From an uncultured Oscillospiraceae bacterium (lineage in GTDB: Bacteria > Bacillota > Clostridia > Oscillospirales > Ruminococcaceae), in the NCBI GenBank assembly GCA_964391915.1, contig CAYMNV010000002.1:52531-116530 (forward strand): 64,000 bases of DNA, given 5' to 3'. The notes beneath the pieces were generated by a model. It did no database searches and had not been told where the DNA came from. It saw nothing but the letters and a program-made list of their open reading frames with translations. This document shows, in pieces, positions 49,934-59,725 of this stretch; the first letter of the stretch is position 1; each line of letters starts with the position of its first letter. Both the position numbers and the translations under genes were made by a program.

Positions 49934-50009
49934 GCTGGTGTAGCTCAGTCGGTAGAGCAGCTGATTTGTAATCAGCAGGTCGGGGGTTCGAATCCGTCCA
50001 CCAGCTCCA
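49934..50009 (+). tRNA. tRNA-Thr (anticodon UGU)
   Basis: Hand-folded 76-nt cloverleaf. Acceptor GCTGGTG/CACCAGC, D stem GCTC/GAGC, anticodon stem GCTGA/TCAGC, loop TTTGTAA, T loop TTCGAAT, encoded CCA. One G-G mismatch in the T stem. Confidence 0.85.
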
Positions 50010-50032: not shown

Positions 50033-50118
50033 GGGAGCGTACCCAAGTGGCTAAAGGGGGCAGACTGTAAATCTGTTGTCTAACGACTACGGTGGTTCGA
50101 ACCCACCCGCTCCCACCA
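50033..50118 (+). tRNA. tRNA-Tyr (anticodon GUA)
   Basis: 86 nt. Acceptor GGGAGCG/CGCTCCC, anticodon loop CTGTAAA, long variable arm (TGTCTAACGACTAC), T arm GGTGG-TTCGAAC-CCACC, encoded CCA. Confidence 0.9.
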
Positions 50119-50186: not shown

Positions 50187-50219
50187 TTTGACCCCAATTT
50201 GACCACAATTTGACCCCAC
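50187..50219 (+). repeat. Three tandem 11-bp direct repeats
   Basis: TTTGACCCCAA TTTGACCACAA TTTGACCCCAC, located between the tRNA terminator and the recombinase remnant. Confidence 0.9.
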
Positions 50220-50232
50220 TTTTCAAAAAAAT

Positions 50233-50430
50233 CAGTAGGCCAGCTTCTGCGATGCGTTCTTGATGTCCTCGGCGTCTACGTCAAAGTAAATCTGCGCGGT
50301 CGCCAGCGAAGCGTGGCCGAGAATCTTCTGCACGTCTTTTGCCAAGGCACCGCCGCGGGTGAGGCAGGTGACAAACGTGTGCCGGCACTTGTGCGAAGAC
50401 AGATCATCCATCAGTTTCTCTCGGCTTACT
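50233..50430 (-). pseudogene. 3'-terminal remnant of a tyrosine recombinase/integrase gene
   Basis: My translation of the minus strand: ..REKLMDDLSSHKCRHTFVTCLTRGGALAKDVQKILGHASLATAQIYFDVDAEDIKNASQKLAY*. It carries the HxxR and LGH...Y catalytic blocks. The upstream in-frame sequence loses similarity, and a stop at 50577-79 leaves no room for the ~250 N-terminal residues. Confidence 0.7.
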
Positions 50431-50592
50431 ATAAAGGCAGCGTTGACGACATGGGTTATCCCGGTGTTGATTCCGATGGGAAAAGTTGTATAATATAAAC
50501 CGATCCCGGCGCTTTTTGCATAAAAAAGGATTTTTCCGGGGGGCTGTTTTCCGGGATGCCCGGCAGGACATAAATTTTAAAACGGAGTGCCT

Positions 50593-51876
50593 ATGAGCGA
50601 AACGAATGCGATTGTGGAGGCATACAGCGTCGTCATCTCCATGCTGCTGATCTCGTGCCTCGTTTTCTGCAAGGATTACAAAACAAAGCTGGGGCGGCTG
50701 TTTCTTGCGATGCTCATCGTAAATGTGCTGATCCTTGCAAGCGACATCATCACATGGGTTTTTGACAAAAATCCGAGATACAACACCTTGATGATGGCGG
50801 CAAACTTTTTTGTCTATCTCTGGAGTTATGTTTTCGCCGCATTTTATACCACATATCTGACAGCCTGTATCGAGCAGAAAAAACCGCTCCGCCGCGCGAA
50901 AGCATTTCTGTATACGGTTTACGGAACATGCATGCTCGCAGCCGTCATGCTCGTGGTATCTCTGTTTAACCATATGTATTTTTATCTTGATGAGTATGGC
51001 GCCTATATCCGCGGGCCGCTGTATAGTGTTTCCCTGATTTTTTCGATCTGTCTGGACATCGCCAATATGGCGATGATTCTTATCCATTGCAGGGTACTTG
51101 GGCTGCCGGATACGCTTGCGCTGCTTTCCTACGGTTTTCTGCCCCTCATCGCGATGGCCGTGCGCATTTACATCTACGACATCACATTTTTGTATTCCTC
51201 CACCACCGTGTCGCTGCTTATCATTTATATTTATATTCAAAACAAACAGAGGCAGCGGCTGTATCGGCAGGAGCGGGAGCTTGCCGAATCGAAAGTCGAT
51301 CTGATGATTTCCCAGATCCAGCCGCATTTCATCTTTAATACGCTGAATTCGATCCGAGAGCTGATCTACAGCGACGTCAACAAGGCCGATCAGATGGTCG
51401 TCCATTTTTCCAAATATCTGCGTGCCAATATCGGTTCCCTGCAGAGCACCTCGGTCGCCTTTTCCGACGAACTGCAGAATGTGGGGGTTTACCTGTCGAT
51501 TGAAAAGGAACGCTTCGGCGATAAAATCCGTTATGTGGAAGAGATCGGCTGCCGGTCGTTTTTCCTTCCGCCGCTGATCATCCAGCCGATCGTGGAGAAT
51601 GCCGTAAAGCACGGCATCTGCCAAAAAGCGGAGGGCGGCACCGTCAGACTCACCACGCAGCCCGAAGGAGACTACATAAAAATCACCATTGAAGACGACG
51701 GGGCGGGGTTTGACGTCGCGGAGAAAAAAGCGGATTCCGTCGGCATCAATAACGTCAGAATGCGGGTGAAATACATGCTCGGAACCGATATGAAAATCGA
51801 GAGCGAACCCGGCATCGGCACGAGGGTGGAAATTCTGGTGCCCCAAAACTACGCGGGAGAGGATGAGCATCGTTGA
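50593..51876 (+). CDS. LytS/YehU-type sensor histidine kinase (His_kinase + HATPase_c), polytopic N-terminus
   Basis: Track ORF starts at GTG 50587; ATG 50593 is 6 nt from AACGGAG. About 6 TM helices, then the family signature ISQIQPHFIFNTLNSI and an ATPase domain (VENAVKHG, DDGAGF, GIGTR). Confidence 0.85.
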   Translation: MSETNAIVEAYSVVISMLLISCLVFCKDYKTKLGRLFLAMLIVNVLILASDIITWVFDKNPRYNTLMMAANFFVYLWSYVFAAFYTTYLTACIEQKKPLRRAKAFLYTVYGTCMLAAVMLVVSLFNHMYFYLDEYGAYIRGPLYSVSLIFSICLDIANMAMILIHCRVLGLPDTLALLSYGFLPLIAMAVRIYIYDITFLYSSTTVSLLIIYIYIQNKQRQRLYRQERELAESKVDLMISQIQPHFIFNTLNSIRELIYSDVNKADQMVVHFSKYLRANIGSLQSTSVAFSDELQNVGVYLSIEKERFGDKIRYVEEIGCRSFFLPPLIIQPIVENAVKHGICQKAEGGTVRLTTQPEGDYIKITIEDDGAGFDVAEKKADSVGINNVRMRVKYMLGTDMKIESEPGIGTRVEILVPQNYAGEDEHR

Positions 51877-52655
51877 AAGCGATCTATGTCGACGACGAAA
51901 ATCTGGCCCTGAGTCTTTTTTGCCGGATCACGGAAGGCCTCGGCGGCGTGACGTTTGAAGTGTTCGGCGATCCCGGCGGCGCCCTTTCCTATGCCGAAAC
52001 GAATCCGATCGATCTTGCCTTTCTGGATATCGAAATGCCGGATCTCGGCGGCATTGAGCTTGCAAAAAGGCTGAAGGAACTGGATCCCAATATCAGCGTG
52101 GTGTTTGTGACGGCCTATGCAAAGTATGCCCTCGACGCCTTTGGGGTGGATGCGATCGGTTACCTTTTAAAGCCGTACCTCCGCGAGGATATCGAAAAGT
52201 ACATCGAAAAGAAAAAGCACATCCTTCCGGTTTACAGAAAAAGCGTGCGGATTCAGACCATGCCGGATTTTCATCTTTTTGTGGATGGCGCGGAGATCCG
52301 GCTCGGCAATACCAAATATGCGGAAATGCTGGCGGCGATCGTGGCTTCCGGCGGCAGCGTCTCCTCCTCCAATTTATCCTTTCTGTTGTGGGAGGATTCC
52401 GCGCTGACGGAGAAGACGATGAATGCCTTTCGGGTCGCCTTCAGCCGTCTCAAAAGCATTCTGGAGGGAAACGGGATCGGCTATATCCTGCACAGCGACA
52501 AAACCACGCGGTATCTCGATAAAAATGCGGTATCCTGCGACTTCTTTGACTTACTGGACGGAAAGGAAGAGGCAATCAAAAGCTATAAGGGATTCTTTTT
52601 GGAGGAATATGCATGGTCGGAGTCAATTAAGGAAAAGCTGAAAATCCATATATAA
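51873..52655 (+). CDS. Response regulator: receiver + SARP/OmpR-like winged-helix output
   Basis: TTG start overlapping the kinase stop (TTGA). REC (IYVDDE, FLDIEMPDLGG, YLLKP). C-terminus VRIQTMPDFHLFVDGAEIRLGNTKYAEMLAAIVASGGSVSSSNLSFLLWED...AFSRLKSIL...RYLD...CDFFD follows the pattern of SARP N-terminal wHTH domains. Confidence 0.75.
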   Translation: MKAIYVDDENLALSLFCRITEGLGGVTFEVFGDPGGALSYAETNPIDLAFLDIEMPDLGGIELAKRLKELDPNISVVFVTAYAKYALDAFGVDAIGYLLKPYLREDIEKYIEKKKHILPVYRKSVRIQTMPDFHLFVDGAEIRLGNTKYAEMLAAIVASGGSVSSSNLSFLLWEDSALTEKTMNAFRVAFSRLKSILEGNGIGYILHSDKTTRYLDKNAVSCDFFDLLDGKEEAIKSYKGFFLEEYAWSESIKEKLKIHI

Positions 52656-52668
52656 CCAAGAATTTTGG

Positions 52669-52708
52669 AAGATCCTGCGGAAAAAACAAAGCCGCAGGAT
52701 CTTTTTTT
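52669..52708 (+). terminator. Intrinsic terminator after the two-component genes
   Basis: AGATCCTGCGG-n10-CCGCAGGATCT followed by T7. Confidence 0.9.
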
Positions 52709-52736
52709 GGTCTTTTTTGCGAATTTCCTGTCGAAA

Positions 52737-52770
52737 TGTAACGGTTCTGTAACGGTCTCTTTTTTATAAT
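52737..52770 (+). promoter_or_regulatory. Direct-repeat activator site plus -10 element
   Basis: TGTAACGGT at 52737-45 and 52748-56 (exact, 11-bp phasing). TATAAT at 52765-70 begins 8 bp after the second repeat. No -35 hexamer. Confidence 0.55.
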
Positions 52771-52795
52771 ATAAGAAGAAAAAGCGCGGATATTC

Positions 52796-54370
52796 ATGGG
52801 GATGATTCTGAAAACGGGCCGTGAAAAGCCGGGCGCGCCGGCCGGACACGGTTCCCATTTGCGGGAAGGGATACGGAACATGGTAAAAGCAACCAGAGCA
52901 GGCGGCTTTGCGGCACAAAACGGCGGCACCATCCTCAACTGTTACAGCACCGTTATGCTGAAAGCAAAATGTACCGCAACCGGCGGCTTTGTCGGAGAGA
53001 ACGACGGAAGCATTTCAAAAAGTTTCTGCGGCGGCCGGCTCGGGCATCTGACCGGCGGCTTTGTCGGCGTGGGCGGCGGCAGCCAGAAGGACGGGTGCTA
53101 TTTTTTCTATGCGGGAAAAAACGACGGCGGAAAACTTTCGGCGCTGTTTGACGGCTACCTCGGTCAGCAGATCAAAAACATAAAAAATGCGCAGGACACG
53201 GAAAATCTCGGTTACGACCTTCAAACGATCTTTGAATATACGGAAGGGGAGAAGGTTCCGCTTCGTTTCAACCCCGAAAACTGGCTGTTCGATACGGAGC
53301 GGGATTGCGGGACTGCACCCTCCGTGCTCATAAAAACGGCGGACGAGCTGTATGAGCTCGCGGAAAAAATCAACGGCGGCGACCGCGGGCTTGCCGGTGC
53401 CCATATCGCCTTGGAACATGATCTCGATCTGGGCGGCAGGGAATGGATACCGATCGGCTCGGACCGGACAAACGCTTTTACCGGGGTGTTTGACGGTGCG
53501 GGGCATACGGTTAAAAATTTTGTCGTCAAAAACAAATCCGTTCAGGATAAAGGCTTTTTCGGCTTTCTGAAAGGTAAGGTTTATAACCTTTCGGTGGACT
53601 GCATCCTGAGGGACGGCCTGTGCGTCGGCGGAATCGCCGCACGGTGCGACGGCGGCACGATCGGGTGCTGCTCCGCCGTGGTGGGGATATCCGGGAAAGC
53701 GGAGGATGCCGGCGGCCTGGTGGGAAGAAACAGCGGGGTAATTTTTCAAAGCTATGCGGGCGGCGTGCTGGAGACCGAGGCGATTCCTTGGCGATGGCTG
53801 TTATTGCCCGTTATTTTTGCTCTGCTGGCGGTTCTGATCTGGAGTTTTTCCAACGCAAGAAACAGCATCCCGATTTTTGCTCCGGTCCCCTACGATCCGG
53901 ATGCGGTCATCAATCCGGAGGAGAGCGGCGATGCCTCCCAACCCGGCGGCAACTTCGTCTCCTTCCAATTTGAGCAGAATATCGACGTGGATCTCTCCGC
54001 GGGGCTCTGCAACTTCAATTTTAAAAACCCGGGCGAATCCAATCACAATATCGTGGTAAAGCTTCAGTTCACCGACTCCCAGGCGGTCACCATCATGGGC
54101 AGCACGGGCAGAACCGAAAAGGAGCAGAAGAAGCTCGAAAGCACGGAGGGCTACGACCCCGACACCTACCGCGTCACCATCGCGGAATCCGGAGCCATCC
54201 GTCCGGGCTATCTGCTGGAAAATCTCCGCTTAGTCGATCAGGCAAACGGTGCGACGGTTCCTCCGGGGAGCTACAACGCCGTGGCCTACCTGATCTTCTA
54301 TGATAAAGACACGAATGAACGGGCGATGCTGGAATCGCAGCTTCCGGTCGTCATTACCGTTCATGACTAA
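52796..54370 (+). CDS. GLUG-motif protein with internal TM helix and C-terminal small domain
   Basis: GLUG-type repeats (GGFVGENDGSISKSF, VGGIAARCDGGTIGCCSA, AGGLVGRNSGVIFQSYAGG) plus the usual LDLGGREWIPIG...FTGVFDGAGHTVKNF core. TM helix WRWLLLPVIFALLAVLIWSF, then ~165 aa. No signal peptide. The better RBS (GGGAAGGG) precedes ATG 52880. Confidence 0.7.
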   Translation: MGMILKTGREKPGAPAGHGSHLREGIRNMVKATRAGGFAAQNGGTILNCYSTVMLKAKCTATGGFVGENDGSISKSFCGGRLGHLTGGFVGVGGGSQKDGCYFFYAGKNDGGKLSALFDGYLGQQIKNIKNAQDTENLGYDLQTIFEYTEGEKVPLRFNPENWLFDTERDCGTAPSVLIKTADELYELAEKINGGDRGLAGAHIALEHDLDLGGREWIPIGSDRTNAFTGVFDGAGHTVKNFVVKNKSVQDKGFFGFLKGKVYNLSVDCILRDGLCVGGIAARCDGGTIGCCSAVVGISGKAEDAGGLVGRNSGVIFQSYAGGVLETEAIPWRWLLLPVIFALLAVLIWSFSNARNSIPIFAPVPYDPDAVINPEESGDASQPGGNFVSFQFEQNIDVDLSAGLCNFNFKNPGESNHNIVVKLQFTDSQAVTIMGSTGRTEKEQKKLESTEGYDPDTYRVTIAESGAIRPGYLLENLRLVDQANGATVPPGSYNAVAYLIFYDKDTNERAMLESQLPVVITVHD

Positions 54371-54391
54371 AAAACAAAGGAGAAGATAACC

Positions 54392-55153
54392 ATGAAAAAA
54401 GTTTTATCAGCTGCCATTGCGCTTATGATGATGATGGCGATGTTTGTCCCGGCATTTGCGGAAGACGGCGTTGCGCCTGCGGCACCGGCGGGCGGCACGG
54501 CGGCGGTCACCAGCAGCGACGGCACAACCTGGGTAGTCGCCAACGACGACGATGAAATTACCTCGAGTTCCGACCACGAAACCAATATCAACGTCTGGGC
54601 GGAGGTCAAGGACAACGGAACGAGCGTCTACAAAGTTGACATCACCTGGGGCGAAATGAAATTCGAGTTTAACAGCGGAACAAAATGGAATGTGGATACC
54701 CATACTTACACCGCTGTGGAGGGCGTCACCGCGGGATGGCAGGTGAACGGTTATTTGGACGGAACGAACAACAGGATTATCGTAACCAACCACTCCAATG
54801 AGGCCATTGAGGCCACCTTTGCGTATGCCATGGCCGATACGAATATCTTCAACACCGATGCGAGCGCCAGTAATCCAACGCACGTGGTCGGCAACTTCTT
54901 TGAGGACAACACAGCCGCGGTAACCGCCGCCGGCGTTTCCGACGTAAGCACTGTCGTGGGTACGATCACAGGCAACAAGATAACAGTTGCCTCCGCCGAT
55001 AACGGCACAGAAGGCGGAGCCGGAAATCCTGTAACGGAAGATGTCTTCTTCGCGTTCAGCGGCATTCCGGATTCGGGCAAAGGCGCGGACCTCGCCGATT
55101 TCACCAAGGTCGGCGTGATCACCGTCACGATCGCGGTTGCTGCTGTTGGATAA
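54392..55153 (+). CDS. Secreted protein sharing a C-terminal domain with the 1116-aa protein
   Basis: AAGGAGAAG RBS and signal peptide MKKVLSAAIALMMMMAMFVPAFA. Residues ~65-253 are paralogous to 58771..59247 (VYKVDITWGEMKF, WNVDTHTY, NNRIIVTNHSNEA, FTKVGVITVTI). Confidence 0.8.
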   Translation: MKKVLSAAIALMMMMAMFVPAFAEDGVAPAAPAGGTAAVTSSDGTTWVVANDDDEITSSSDHETNINVWAEVKDNGTSVYKVDITWGEMKFEFNSGTKWNVDTHTYTAVEGVTAGWQVNGYLDGTNNRIIVTNHSNEAIEATFAYAMADTNIFNTDASASNPTHVVGNFFEDNTAAVTAAGVSDVSTVVGTITGNKITVASADNGTEGGAGNPVTEDVFFAFSGIPDSGKGADLADFTKVGVITVTIAVAAVG

Positions 55154-55200
55154 GTAAACGGTGCTAATCTTCTGCAAGTAGAGATTCTACTCCGCACCGG

Positions 55201-55269
55201 CCTTCCCTTTCACGGGATGGGCGGCATAAAAATGGGATAGGATCCATTCGCCGCCCGTGAAAGGGAAGG
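55201..55269 (+). other. Long imperfect intergenic stem-loop
   Basis: CCTTCCCTTTCACGGG(atg)GGCGG ... CCGCCCGTGAAAGGGAAGG. 19 bp with a 3-nt bulge, ~26-nt loop, no T-run. Confidence 0.6.
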
Positions 55270-55356
55270 CATTGCATAAGGGAGCAGATCCGACCGTCTC
55301 ACGCTGCGGGAGACGGAAACCTTTTTTCAACGTTTTTTGCAGAAAGGACAAGCATT

Positions 55357-55872
55357 GTGAGAGCACAGCCCACCAAACTGCAGACAGGAACAGGGAGAAA
55401 GCGCCTGCTTCTTTTTTCAGCCGCGGCGCTGATTCTGTTGCTGGCTGCCGGAATTGTATACATAAAGAACGATGAGCCGCCGTATCGTCCGCCGCTTTGG
55501 GAAGAAAACGCCGTCAACGGCGTTCCCGAACCGGAGGAGAGCCTGAATTACGGTACGATTGAAACGGACGGCGGTTTGATCTTTGCGCTTGCCGGCACCA
55601 TGTACCAGCAGGAGGACGGCTCGCTTCTTCTTTATTTTACAAATCCCGAAGACAGCGGGGTTCTGATGATGTGCGAGATCCGCGGGGAGGGCGGCAAGGT
55701 CCTGTATCAAAGCGGGATGCTTTCTCCGGGGCAGTATGTCGAGCGCCTATATCCGCAATGCAAGCTAAAAAACGAAGCGATGAAAATTGAAATGAAAGTC
55801 TACGGCTTTGAGCCGGAGACCTATTACAGCATGGGTACGGTCACCTTGGAAAATACCCTGCAGCCATGGTAA
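55357..55872 (+). CDS. N-terminally anchored small protein, paralogous to the C-terminal domain of the GLUG protein
   Basis: GTG start 8 nt after GAAAGGA. Basic N-terminus plus TM (GRKRLLLFSAAALILLLAAGIVYI). Ectodomain shares F.NP..S, SG.(I/L).PG.Y.E.L and terminal beta-like strings with 53900..54367. Confidence 0.65.
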   Translation: MRAQPTKLQTGTGRKRLLLFSAAALILLLAAGIVYIKNDEPPYRPPLWEENAVNGVPEPEESLNYGTIETDGGLIFALAGTMYQQEDGSLLLYFTNPEDSGVLMMCEIRGEGGKVLYQSGMLSPGQYVERLYPQCKLKNEAMKIEMKVYGFEPETYYSMGTVTLENTLQPW

Positions 55873-55899
55873 ACATCCTAAAGAAAGGAGGTGAGGCGA

Positions 55900-58800
55900 A
55901 TGATGAAAACAGTAAGCCGAAAACTCTTTGCTGCGCTGATTGCATTCGCGATAGTGGGAACGGTGCTGCCGGAGCCTTCGTTTGCCATGACGAATACCAC
56001 CGTCAGTTCCATAACTTCTGCGACGGCGGCGGGTACGACCCTTTCCGACGGCTATACATATAAAGTGACCTCCAATGTCACCATAACGAACAACTCCACG
56101 GGCGGAAACGGCCTGAATATCGCATCCGGCGCAACGGTTGTCATCTATATCGCATCCGGCTATACGCTGACCGTAAAGGGCGGAAACGGCTCGGGCACAA
56201 TCGGCGGCGGCGCGGGAATTTATCTTCCAAACAATTCCATACTGATTCTTACCGGCGGCGGACGGTTGTCGGCGACCGGCGGCATGGGTACGTCGCCCGG
56301 CTCCGGATATTCCGGAGACTATGCGTATTTCACGGGAGACTGTGACTATCTGTATGGCGGCACCGGCGGCAGCGGCGGATACGGCGGCGGCGGAGCCGGC
56401 GCAGGAATCGGCGGAAACGGCGGGACCGGCGGCAGCGGCGGCAGCTACGGAACAAACAACTGGAGCAGCGGTTTTTTATGGAGTAAAGGGAACAGAGACG
56501 GAAATGCCGGCGGCACCGGCTATAGCGGCGGAAATGGCAGCGCCATGGGGACTTTATATGTTCTCGGAAGCGTGACGGTCTACGCCTATGCGGGTACTTC
56601 CTATTCCACTTCACGCGGGAACGGCGGATCGGGCGGCAGCTCTGTGGCGGGGTATTATACCACTTATGGCCAGTATGCCTCTGCCACAGGCGGTGCCGGC
56701 GGAGGCGGCGGCGGAGCCGGCGGCAATGCGGCAAACATCGGCGGCGGCGGTGCCGGCGGTGGAGGCGGCGGCGGAGGCGGCGGCGGAAGCTACCACTATA
56801 AAACCGGAGGGAGCTACTGCTACATGATCCGCGGTGGTTCCGGCGGCGGAGGCGGTGGAGCTTCCGGCTACGGCGGCTATGCCGGCGACCTCTCGACCGG
56901 TATCCGCCAGTATTGGCGCGACGGCTACTTTGGCAGCAATACGATTCAGTGGAAGGGCGATACGGGAAAAGCCGGTACAACCAGTGGCGGCACCGGCGGC
57001 GCCAGCACGACGCTGGATAGTTATTGGGGCGGTACCGGCGGCAACGGAGGCTCTGTGGGCAGCGGCGGCAGCGGCGGCAGCGTGTATGTGGCGCCGACTG
57101 CAAGCGTGACGACACCGAGCGGAAGTTCGGCTTCGACCGGAAACGGCGCCGCGGCCAGCAGGTCTTCCTATTCCGGAACACCTGCCGCAGTAAGCAATAT
57201 CCTGTATTTGAACAATACGAACAGCAGCAATACCGCGGCGGGCTCCAATGCGGCGAGCTATACCGTTGCTTACGGCAACGCGCTGCCTTCGGCGGTAACG
57301 GTTCCGATACTTCAGAATTATTCCTTTATGGGCTATTATACCGGGCTCGGCGGCACGGGCACACGGGTGTATAACCACCGCGGAGAAAAGCTCGTAAGTG
57401 AATGGAGTTGGACAAGCAACCTGACGCTCTATGCCTATTGGAAACAGAGTCAGTTCGTGATAACCTTCAACCAGCAGAACGGCACGGGCGGCACAAGCAG
57501 CATCATTACCGGCGTAACGATCGATGAGGGTACCGGGGATATCACCGATAAGGGTATCCTTACGGCGCTTTCAGTTCTTCCGACAAGGACGCATTACGCC
57601 TTTGCGGGATATTACGATCAGGCCTCCGGGAACGGAACCAAGTATTACAGTGCGGACGGTACGCTCACGAGCAGCGCCGTAAGGATCACCGAAAATAAAA
57701 CGCTGTACGCCTGCTGGACGCAAAACCAATATAGTGTGATCTTTAACAGGAACGGCGGGCTCGGCGGCACGGAAAGCGCCTATACCACCGGCACGGACGG
57801 AACGCTTCCTGCCATATCCGTTCCCACAAGAACCGGATATGCCTTCACCGGGTATTACGGCACGGCAAGCGGCGGGACCTGTTATTATGATGCTGCCGGT
57901 ACTGTGCAGAGCGCAAAGCTTTCCGCCAATACGACGGTGTATGCGAACTGGAGCGAGGCTTCCTATTCCATTACCTACAATCTTAACGGCGGAACGGCCG
58001 GAACAAATGCGCCGGCTTCTTATTCCTACAGCGTGGGGGCCGTCGTTTCCAATCCGACAAAAGCGGAGTATACCTTTACCGGCTGGCAGATCAACGGCGG
58101 TACCGAGAGAATCCGGAATTTTTCCATCTTGGCAAACGACGCGGGCTATGCGAAGAACCTGACGCTGGAAGCCGTATGGACGAAATCGGCCGACGTCAGT
58201 ATTTCGATCGACAGCGAAATTTCCGAAGAAGTACAGGCTTCCGCCAATACGAACAGCCAGCTTGAAGCGGTTTTCAATACCGTGGTCGGTGATGAAAACG
58301 GCGGGGTCACGGCGGACGATCTCTCGCCGGATAATGCCGTTTCGTTGAAACTTTCCGTCAGTGCGGCCGATCCGGAAGGCACCGCTTCATCGGATGCGGA
58401 GGCAATTGCCGATATCGCGCAGGGCAGTGCGGAAAAGTATTACGACATCCGCGCCATAAAAACAGTGATTACGGGAGAAAACAGCACAGAATATACCTTG
58501 ACGGAGATTCCTTCTTCCGTAGAGGTGCTGATCCCGATTAGCGGCGATCTTTCCGGGCGGGAATCCTACTTTGTCTACCGCTATCACGACGGCGTTGCGG
58601 AAAGGCTTCCTCTTGGCCCGCCGGCAGATGCATCCGACAGCGCGGAATACTACTATATTGATTCCGCAAACAGCCAGATCGTCGTCATGACGCGCAAATT
58701 CTCCACCTATGCGGTATACAGCTCCAACCTGTCCCTCAGCGGGGAAGGGTATTTCTATTCCGGGAACAACAATGTGGATGTTCAGGCGCGAATCGCGGAG

Positions 58801-59250
58801 GATACCAGCAAAGTGTATAAAATAGACATCGGCTGGGGAAGCATGAAATTCGTGTACTCCACGGACTCGGAATGGAATGTGGATACGCACATGTATTCGG
58901 AAGGCTCCTATAACGACTGGCTGCCGTCCTATTTCGACGCGGTAAACAATAAAATCACCATGCTGAATCACAGCAACGGTGCGGTAAAGATCACTCTGAC
59001 GGTCACGGAAAACGCTCTGGCCGGCGTCGGTATGTCGCTGCATCTGTATAACGAAATCACTTCCGCCGAGACGGAAAGTTATCTTCTTGATGCGGCCGCA
59101 GTGGGTGCCACGAATGAGGAACTGATTCCGGCGAATGCGTATCTTTTCCTGAGCGGAACTCCGGAGAGAAGCTGGATCAACGACGACGGGAACCTGACTT
59201 TTCAAAAGGTCGGCGTGATCACAGCCACCATTGAGCCATACGCGGGCTAA
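55900..59250 (+). CDS. Large secreted protein: Gly-rich region, four Listeria-Bacteroides (InlB B / Flg_new) repeats, C-terminal shared domain
   Basis: Track ORF from GTG 55891; ATG 55900 follows AAAGGAGGTGAGG. Signal peptide ..AIVGTVLPEPSFA. Gly-dominated stretch at about 56300-57150. Four B-repeats at about 57230-58190 (e.g. YSITYNLNGGTAG...YTFTGWQ...LTLEAVW). C-terminal domain at 58771-59247. No LPXTG, SLH or lipobox. Confidence 0.85.
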   Translation: MMKTVSRKLFAALIAFAIVGTVLPEPSFAMTNTTVSSITSATAAGTTLSDGYTYKVTSNVTITNNSTGGNGLNIASGATVVIYIASGYTLTVKGGNGSGTIGGGAGIYLPNNSILILTGGGRLSATGGMGTSPGSGYSGDYAYFTGDCDYLYGGTGGSGGYGGGGAGAGIGGNGGTGGSGGSYGTNNWSSGFLWSKGNRDGNAGGTGYSGGNGSAMGTLYVLGSVTVYAYAGTSYSTSRGNGGSGGSSVAGYYTTYGQYASATGGAGGGGGGAGGNAANIGGGGAGGGGGGGGGGGSYHYKTGGSYCYMIRGGSGGGGGGASGYGGYAGDLSTGIRQYWRDGYFGSNTIQWKGDTGKAGTTSGGTGGASTTLDSYWGGTGGNGGSVGSGGSGGSVYVAPTASVTTPSGSSASTGNGAAASRSSYSGTPAAVSNILYLNNTNSSNTAAGSNAASYTVAYGNALPSAVTVPILQNYSFMGYYTGLGGTGTRVYNHRGEKLVSEWSWTSNLTLYAYWKQSQFVITFNQQNGTGGTSSIITGVTIDEGTGDITDKGILTALSVLPTRTHYAFAGYYDQASGNGTKYYSADGTLTSSAVRITENKTLYACWTQNQYSVIFNRNGGLGGTESAYTTGTDGTLPAISVPTRTGYAFTGYYGTASGGTCYYDAAGTVQSAKLSANTTVYANWSEASYSITYNLNGGTAGTNAPASYSYSVGAVVSNPTKAEYTFTGWQINGGTERIRNFSILANDAGYAKNLTLEAVWTKSADVSISIDSEISEEVQASANTNSQLEAVFNTVVGDENGGVTADDLSPDNAVSLKLSVSAADPEGTASSDAEAIADIAQGSAEKYYDIRAIKTVITGENSTEYTLTEIPSSVEVLIPISGDLSGRESYFVYRYHDGVAERLPLGPPADASDSAEYYYIDSANSQIVVMTRKFSTYAVYSSNLSLSGEGYFYSGNNNVDVQARIAEDTSKVYKIDIGWGSMKFVYSTDSEWNVDTHMYSEGSYNDWLPSYFDAVNNKITMLNHSNGAVKITLTVTENALAGVGMSLHLYNEITSAETESYLLDAAAVGATNEELIPANAYLFLSGTPERSWINDDGNLTFQKVGVITATIEPYAG

Positions 59251-59725
59251 AACCGCAGGCACCGAAAAAGGGCAGGCTGCCGTATTTTTATTGCGGCGGC
59301 CCGCCTTTTTTATCCGGCAGAAAAAAATGCTTGGCCTGAAAACAAGAAAATCCGCATGAGCATGAATGCCTGCGAAACGGATTCCCTTGAGCATGCCCAT
59401 CCGCGTCGGCACCGCTTTTTGAGCACAGCCGGTGGCACATACAAAATATCGGTGATTTATTATAAAATTGATTATATATAATATCTAATTCGATGAATTC
59501 CACGGGGATAATTTTCTATAAAACGGAGAAAAATATGGAATGGGCTTGTTTTTCCAGCAGAAACTGTTATTATTATAATGTTCTTTTAACTTTTTATGAA
59601 AATGGAGCGAAGAGAAATGAAGCCCCGAAGTTCTGCCAACAGAACCGAATCCTGTAGCTCGTCCGCGGTGCGCAGCAGGTACTACGGGAAGGGCTGCTGC
59701 AACCATAAGCATAGACCGACAAGAT

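Follow-up and report, generated by a model that had tools for sequence, protein, structure and literature searches.

A direct-repeat promoter and a candidate SARP-type response regulator in a putative accessory island of gut Clostridia

In the 64,000-nt stretch of DNA analysed here (the window), an exact pair of direct repeats takes the place of a −35 element in front of a surface-protein operon, and a two-component system is encoded immediately upstream. Sequence comparison and structure modelling make it very probable that this −35-less promoter is activated by the adjacent response regulator, which, once phosphorylated, would bind both repeats as a tandem dimer. The LytS-type kinase would phosphorylate the receiver at D52, and the regulator would bind head-to-tail as a dimer, with a protomer on each repeat and both on one face of the helix, between about −40 and −21. 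The bound regulator would substitute for the missing −35 and recruit or adapt sigma-A RNA polymerase to the TATAAT hexamer. Transcription would then run from near 52777 through a four-gene surface-protein operon in a class II, SARP-type mode of activation. We infer that this regulator is the binder, that its effect is activating, where transcription starts and that activation depends on phosphorylation. The result is a concrete predicted wiring, from kinase to regulator to box to surface-protein operon, for an accessory island of gut Clostridia and for the regulator family to which it belongs.

The repeat box and the operon downstream

The repeat TGTAACGGT is found on the + strand at 52737–52745 and again at 52748–52756, with a start-to-start distance of 11 bp and a TC spacer. 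An 8-bp gap (CTCTTTTT) separates the second copy from a TATAAT −10 hexamer at 52765–52770 on the same strand, and the promoter stretch as a whole reads cgaaaTGTAACGGTtcTGTAACGGTctctttttTATAATataag. The 11-bp phasing of the 9-mer and the 8-bp distance to a perfect TATAAT had both been claimed in an earlier note on this DNA, and both are confirmed. The absence of a −35, also claimed there, holds as well. The candidate hexamers GGTTCT, CGGTTC and ACGGTT, at spacers of 16–18 bp, agree with TTGACA at 0–1 of 6 positions, and a sigma-70 scan of the window called no promoter at the site. The TATAAT at 52765–52770 has no TG extension upstream. Transcription is predicted to start near 52776–52778, which would place the upstream repeat at about −40 to −32 and the downstream repeat at about −29 to −21.

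The repeat pair is real, exact, correctly placed and rare in the genome. Within the window the 9-mer TGTAACGGT occurs in just these two places, and the degenerate pair pattern is expected 0.13 times in the window on the basis of shuffles. According to the earlier note, a frequent occurrence of the pair away from promoters would have counted against a regulatory role. A scan of all 42 contigs of the assembly (1.85 Mb) with the 20-bp tandem pattern, allowing up to 3 mismatches, gave a single tandem site, and a reversed-pattern control gave 0 matches genome-wide, so the pair is not a frequent genomic sequence. The scan returned one additional match, which is inverted, carries 3 mismatches and lies 181 bp downstream inside the first gene. 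Further regulon members were looked for in the same search, and only the promoter box and this intragenic inverted copy came out of it. A candidate third repeat, TGTCGAAA, was also rejected; it lies 8 bp rather than 11 bp before the first repeat, which puts it out of phase, and it is not conserved in one of the orthologous loci (L007).

In the target promoters of SARPs, the repeats are spaced by 11 or 22 bp, and 8 bp separate the 3′ one from the −10 (PMC10936776). The window promoter has the geometry of this published rule, as the earlier note had proposed, and shares the 11-bp repeats and the 8-bp distance with the promoters of AfsR (the afs box), ActII-ORF4 and DnrI. In the case of AfsR, the box runs from −40 to −19, across a poor −35 (Wang et al. 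2024, PMC10936776). Two AfsR protomers lie side by side on it, and within each 11-bp repeat a protomer touches the first 8 bp (PMC10936776). The window box, at about −40 to −21 from the predicted start near 52777, has the same placement, over a −35 that is missing rather than poor.

The box is located 30 bp past the intrinsic terminator of the kinase-regulator operon (52668–52710, + strand), which has a perfect stem of 12–13 bp and a T run (−25 kcal/mol, z −2.9) and has an equivalent hairpin in the orthologues. Judged from its sequence, this terminator should shield the downstream operon against read-through, and the operon would therefore depend on the repeat-box promoter. Four genes on the same strand follow the box (52881–59250). 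The first encodes a GLUG-motif protein with a membrane helix in mid-protein (52881–54370, + strand). The longest open reading frame of this gene begins at 52796 with a poor RBS, and the orthologues keep a start equivalent to 52881; the true start is likely the ATG at 52881, with the RBS GGGAAGGGA, and the annotated start should probably be placed there. With this start, the leader is ~100 nt long. A riboswitch or structured leader before this ATG was considered and rejected, with no Rfam match at E ≤ 1 and a leader that is not conserved in two orthologous loci (L006 and L008). The other genes, all on the + strand, encode a secreted protein of 253 aa (54392–55153), a membrane-anchored protein of 171 aa (55357–55872) and a Gly-rich surface protein of 1119 aa with Listeria-Bacteroides (Flg_new) repeats (55891–59250). 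A terminator at 59275–59301 closes the operon.

The island, the two-component genes and the output domain

The genes lie downstream of tRNA-Thr (49934–50009) and tRNA-Tyr (50033–50118). Next to these is the C-terminal catalytic stump of a tyrosine recombinase (50232–50420, − strand), which has ~60 codons and contains ...HKCRHTF...LGHASLATAQIYFDV... Because the stump adjoins the two tRNA genes, the kinase, the regulator and the surface operon look like the cargo of a decayed integrated element, and this sequence context supports an integrated island. Also, the output domain of the regulator is encoded in only 2 of 25 same-genus genomes, and by this measure the island appears to be accessory. 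Three tandem 11-bp units, TTTGACC(C/A)CA(A/C), occupy 50187–50220; the tRNA-Tyr terminator lies on one side of them and the integrase stump, with its 3′ end, on the other. These units are unrelated to the TGTAAC box, have no −10 8 bp beyond them and may serve the island as arm-type recombinase sites.

The sensor histidine kinase (429 aa, 50587–51876, + strand) has a multi-pass membrane N-terminus followed by a His_kinase domain (PF06580, LytS/YehU type) and HATPase_c. The promoter scan assigns it a sigma-70-like promoter, TTGATT-16-TATAAT, at 50467–50494. Autoregulation was considered and rejected, since no box-like repeat is present upstream of the kinase and this ordinary promoter is found instead. 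The response regulator (260 aa, 51873–52655, + strand) consists of a REC domain and a predicted shortened SARP-type domain, and its gene begins with a TTG that overlaps the stop codon of the kinase (TTGA). In three relatives with 87% identity (L003, L004 and L005), the kinase is called as two genes of 125 aa and 309–314 aa, at about 4720–6004 in L003 and L004, and the sensor of these three may be broken. The operon that follows is also shorter in these relatives and has no gene for the 1119-aa protein, which indicates that the cargo varies among close relatives.

The REC domain covers residues 1–115 and matches PF00072 with an E-value of 8.8e-19 (Pfam). Among 58 homologues D52, K100 and P101 are invariant, and D7, D8, E9 and T80 are nearly invariant. 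The nearest named relatives of the receiver are the BtsR/LytR receivers, which is consistent with a LytS-type kinase partner. For residues 120–260 no Pfam family is found at E ≤ 10, neither Trans_reg_C (PF00486) nor BTAD nor LytTR, and NCBIfam alignments to VanR and RpaB reach weakly into the output domain, far below the cut-off. In a full-length AlphaFold model (58 homologues, pLDDT 91.5), the receiver is followed by a small beta-sheet, three helices, a beta-hairpin wing and three short helices. The model thus places an OmpR-like winged helix at about residues 122–215 and ~3 helices of a BTA domain (~40 aa, about residues 223–259) before the protein ends at residue 260. The topology of beta-sheet, alpha1–alpha3 and wing is that of the N-terminal OmpR-type winged-helix (ODB) domain of SARPs. 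A complete all-helical BTA (BTAD) domain is not present, as only ~40 residues follow the wing.

A full-length Foldseek search with this model returns PrrA, VanR, RpaA, DrrD, DrrB, KdpE and PhoP as the best matches, with ~226–233 aligned columns. The C-terminal domain gives a different ranking. Its profile matches EmbR (E 1.2e-5) and AfsR (E 1.7e-4) among PDB sequences, and OmpR-type domains follow at E ≥ 0.016; the EmbR alignment runs through the 'CDL' motif that opens the BTA domain. When the C-terminal domain was modelled alone (pLDDT 89.1), Foldseek matched it to AfsR in the transcription activation complex (8hvr_I; E 5e-5, TMq 0.68) and to EmbR (2ff4; TMq 0.73 over 164 columns), whereas the domains of ArlR and PhoB gave a TMq below 0.5 and covered ~85 of 143 residues. 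As both profile and fold rank EmbR and AfsR first, the output domain is best described as a SARP-type winged helix with a BTA stub, nearer to SARPs than to OmpR/PhoB as far as the models go. The earlier note had ascribed a SARP- or OmpR-type winged helix to the neighbouring regulator; profile and predicted fold agree with it and favour the SARP side. Its further prediction, a direct switching-on of the envelope operon by the two-component system of the island, is likewise supported by comparison and predicted structure.

The BTA domain in AfsR makes many RNA-polymerase contacts. Since only ~3 BTA helices have been kept, the polymerase contacts of the window regulator, and even the sign of the regulation, could differ. 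If the regulator bound the repeats as a repressor, it would occlude polymerase at −40 to −21, and such a role would fit a box that overlaps the polymerase footprint, a perfect −10 and the loss of most of the domain that contacts polymerase. We consider repression unlikely nevertheless. Sigma-A promoters with neither a −35 nor a TG extension are expected to have low basal activity, and low basal activity is therefore expected at the repeat-box promoter, which has neither. Also, the 8-bp register to the −10 is kept family-wide and would be needed by an activator in contact with polymerase, but not by a simple roadblock, and the identical geometry defines the SARP activators.

Activation by this particular regulator has a second competitor, in which the repeats serve another tandem-binding protein, for instance another OmpR/PhoB-type response regulator encoded in this genome. 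Direct repeats of 11 bp in place of a −35 do fit PhoB/OmpR-type regulators in general. However, in 25 of 54 loci the boxes travel and co-vary with regulators of this family, and within the genus the box is found exactly in those genomes that have the regulator, which are few. The source genome has a single regulator of this type and a single box. Taken together, these distributions make a different binder very improbable, and the adjacent regulator is retained as the predicted one.

Conservation of the box in orthologous loci and across the family

Six orthologous loci were compared, namely the window, L004, L006, L007, L008 and L010. The regulators of L004, L008, L006 and L007 are 87%, 76%, 74% and 60% identical to that of the window, respectively; L010 is a same-genus genome with a regulator that is 85% identical over the C-terminal domain. 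The box lies directly past the regulator's terminator in the other five loci, and all six keep TGTAAYGGT-N2-TGTAAY 8 bp ahead of a −10-like hexamer. The window has TGTAACGGT tc TGTAACGGT, the gap ctcttttt and TATAAT, and the same hexamer is found in L004 (TGTAACGGT ta TGTAACGCT, gap gccttttt), L010 (TGTAACGGT ta TGTAACAAT, gap gctttttc) and L006 (TGTAACGGT ta TGTAATGGT, gap gagcttta). L008 has TGTAACGGT ta TGTAATGGT, the gap gaatattg and AATAAT, and L007 has TGTAACGGT tg TGTAATGGT, the gap aagcagtt and TAGTAT. In a five-way alignment, no other invariant run of the intergenic region is as long as TGTAACGGT-N2-TGTAAY; the flanks and the leader have diverged. All orthologues have an identical upstream repeat, and the promoter-proximal repeat varies at positions 6–8. 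L007 retains the box despite a different downstream gene.

The inverted copy inside the first gene, CATAACGGT-GC-TGTAACAGT (52938–52957, − strand), falls on the codons N-C-Y-S-T-V. It has 3 mismatches in the same-genus locus L010 also, and 5–6 in L004, L006 and L008, at synonymous positions. These changes suggest that the copy is probably a by-product of coding, and less probably a weak auxiliary site or a looping partner. Together with this copy, the box could also belong to a phase-variable promoter that inverts: the box would be the left of two arms of 18 nt and 89% complementarity (52739–52756 and 52938–52955), and the promoter and the 5′ part of the first gene would lie between them. A copy with 3 mismatches is improbable by chance within 200 bp, with ~1 expected genome-wide by our own estimate, and the island does carry an integrase remnant. 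On the other hand, no intact recombinase is encoded nearby, only the ~60-codon C-terminal stump, and an inversion would sever the 5′ end of the gene from its body. The right arm, which coincides with the conserved NCYSTV codons, has lost matches at synonymous sites in L004, L006 and L008, where the left box is intact, and distant family members have the tandem box with no inverted partner. An invertible promoter is accordingly given little weight here.

Beyond the orthologues, 54 loci with full-length relatives of the regulator were gathered from genome collections. A scan covered the 300 bp after each regulator gene and periods of 6–16, and a 9-mer pair was allowed one mismatch at most. A period-11 pair is present in 25 of the 54 loci, and each of the other periods in 0–4 loci. 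The period-11 count in 200 shuffles has a mean of 1.36 and a maximum of 5, which corresponds to an enrichment of ~18-fold. The automatic anchoring overlooked L004 and L008, which both have the pair. At this stringency, about half of the family loci lack a period-11 pair within the scanned 300 bp; the 11-bp rule is common but not universal, or the targets are elsewhere. Two loci (L020 and L026) have their boxes ahead of the kinase gene or in divergent orientation to it.

Under an automatic register rule, 17 of the 25 loci have TAnnnT 8 bp beyond the last repeat, and most of the remaining loci are mere register slips of 1–2 bases. AT-rich intergenic DNA readily acquires short tandem duplications, and the window pair could in principle be a chance repeat or a product of replication slippage that has no function. 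The box is kept in six orthologous loci with diverged flanks, however, period-11 pairs exceed shuffles across the family by the margin given above, and the distance to the −10 is fixed. Because of the conservation of the box, this reading is excluded for practical purposes.

The sequence of the box shifts with the regulator (TGTAAG, TGTCATAGG, TTTTACGCT, TGTGACTGA, TGTTATACA) and the geometry stays constant. Related regulators have related boxes, from which it follows that box and regulator co-vary. A TACAAT hexamer is found after TGTAAGGGT tg TGTAAGGGT tt TGTAAGGGC in L014 (gap atttatga), after TGTTATACA tt TGTTATACA in L019 (gap tgaggtat) and after TGTGACTGA ag TGTGACCGA in L107 (gap acaaaaga). 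TATAAT is found in L024 (TGTGAAAGT tt TGTGAAGGT, gap gagtatgc) and in L098 (TTTTACGCT ct TTTTACGCG, gap gagcgtta), and TAATAT in L015 (TGTAAGGTT tt TGTAAGGGT, gap gggtgtga). Finally, TAAAAT follows TGTCATAGG tt TGTCATAGA in L112–L114 (gap tagtctga; L115–L118 are similar) and TGTCACGGT tc TGTCACGGA in L119 (gap tgatgtgc). The boxes accompany the regulator family in many families of Clostridia (the 25 of 54 loci), and the output domain is encoded in 37 of 399 sampled Clostridia genomes (~9%). The same box layout thus recurs, at the level of sequence, across an uncharacterised regulator family of gut Clostridia, which domain databases name merely 'response regulator'.

The genes after the boxes mostly encode large secreted or surface proteins (L007, L014, L015, L019, L025, L033, L096, L098, L112 and L123). 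Since many of the targets are of this kind, the systems may control the surface presentation of gut bacteria. In L123, a secreted protein with Gly-rich repeats of the GGxGAGIGGG type follows the box and a small REC-only gene, from about position 2520 onwards, and these repeats resemble those of the 1119-aa protein of the window. The regulator family seems to be recurrently tied to Gly-rich surface proteins. In the distant loci L030 (Paenibacillus), L119 and L123, the box is followed first by a gene for a receiver alone (~126 aa), which suggests a branched or multi-step phosphorelay in these three loci.

Relation to known systems

The DNA-binding domain of the window regulator finds its best matches, in both profile and fold, among the SARP proteins, and the match includes the first helices past the wing (M. 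tuberculosis EmbR, 164 columns). The regulator differs in having an N-terminal receiver and a histidine kinase partner. To our knowledge, the known SARPs have neither of these, and AfsR is controlled by Ser/Thr kinases. The BTA domain is another difference, as it is reduced to ~3 helices (~40 aa) with the Pfam models BTAD and Trans_reg_C both silent. The hosts differ too, being actinomycetes for the SARPs and gut Clostridia (Oscillospiraceae-like) for the window regulator, and so do the targets, which are antibiotic biosynthesis for the SARPs and a surface-protein operon in the window. A literature search found no characterised REC-SARP regulator or COG3947 member, and the coverage of the search was incomplete, so one could exist. 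The mechanism class, SARP/OmpR-type class II activation, is known, and it is the receiver-fused 'mini-SARP' regulator family that is uncharacterised and widespread.

On balance, we favour the view that the family represents a widespread, uncharacterised two-component output of Clostridia, in which a LytR-lineage receiver is joined to a 'mini-SARP' (a winged helix with a BTA stub). Such a protein would adapt sigma in SARP style at −35-less promoters with most of the BTA domain missing, typically at one adjacent operon for surface or secreted proteins. If this is correct, SARP-type activation extends beyond the actinomycetes and is linked to a His-Asp phosphorelay. The promoter grammar of the SARPs is apparently not limited to the antibiotic regulators of actinomycetes and usable with a minimal BTA stub under a phosphorelay, which bears on the question of which SARP parts are needed for polymerase. 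Each regulator adjoins its own box, and the family is therefore a ready data set for specificity rules; at least 25 regulator/box pairs would give a readable DNA-recognition code. Orthogonal switches for Firmicutes might also be drawn from the family.

The LytTR regulators (AgrA, ComE and LytR/BtsR) resemble the window system in the type of kinase and in the lineage of the receiver, and LytTR-type regulators are the usual partners of PF06580 kinases. Activation of adjacent operons from direct repeats is also common to both, being proposed in the case of the window. LytTR boxes consist of 9-bp repeats ~21 bp apart, whereas the period in the window is 11 bp, and the predicted output domain is a winged helix rather than a LytTR domain.

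With the OmpR/PhoB regulators, the window regulator shares the architecture of REC plus winged helix, as seen in the full-length Foldseek search. PhoB binds pho boxes head-to-tail in tandem, on 11-bp direct repeats that stand in place of the −35, and the window repeats likewise have an 11-bp period and replace the −35. The differences from OmpR/PhoB are as follows: the window regulator has no detectable Trans_reg_C (PF00486), its C-terminal domain ranks SARPs first, with OmpR-type domains covering ~85 of 143 residues, and its receiver is closest to the LytR/BtsR receivers. Also, the kinase is of the LytS/YehU His_kinase type and not of the EnvZ/PhoR HisKA type, and the spacing from repeat to −10 is the 8 bp of the SARPs. 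The core of the E. coli pho box is CTGTCAT repeated at 11 bp (TGTCA). In L112–L118, the boxes found 48–60 bp past the stop of the response regulator, TTTGTCATAGG-TTTGTCATAG (TGTCATAGG-TT-TGTCATAG), resemble this TGTCA core. There are thus hints of a shared winged-helix recognition of TGTNA across OmpR, PhoB, the SARPs and the family described here.
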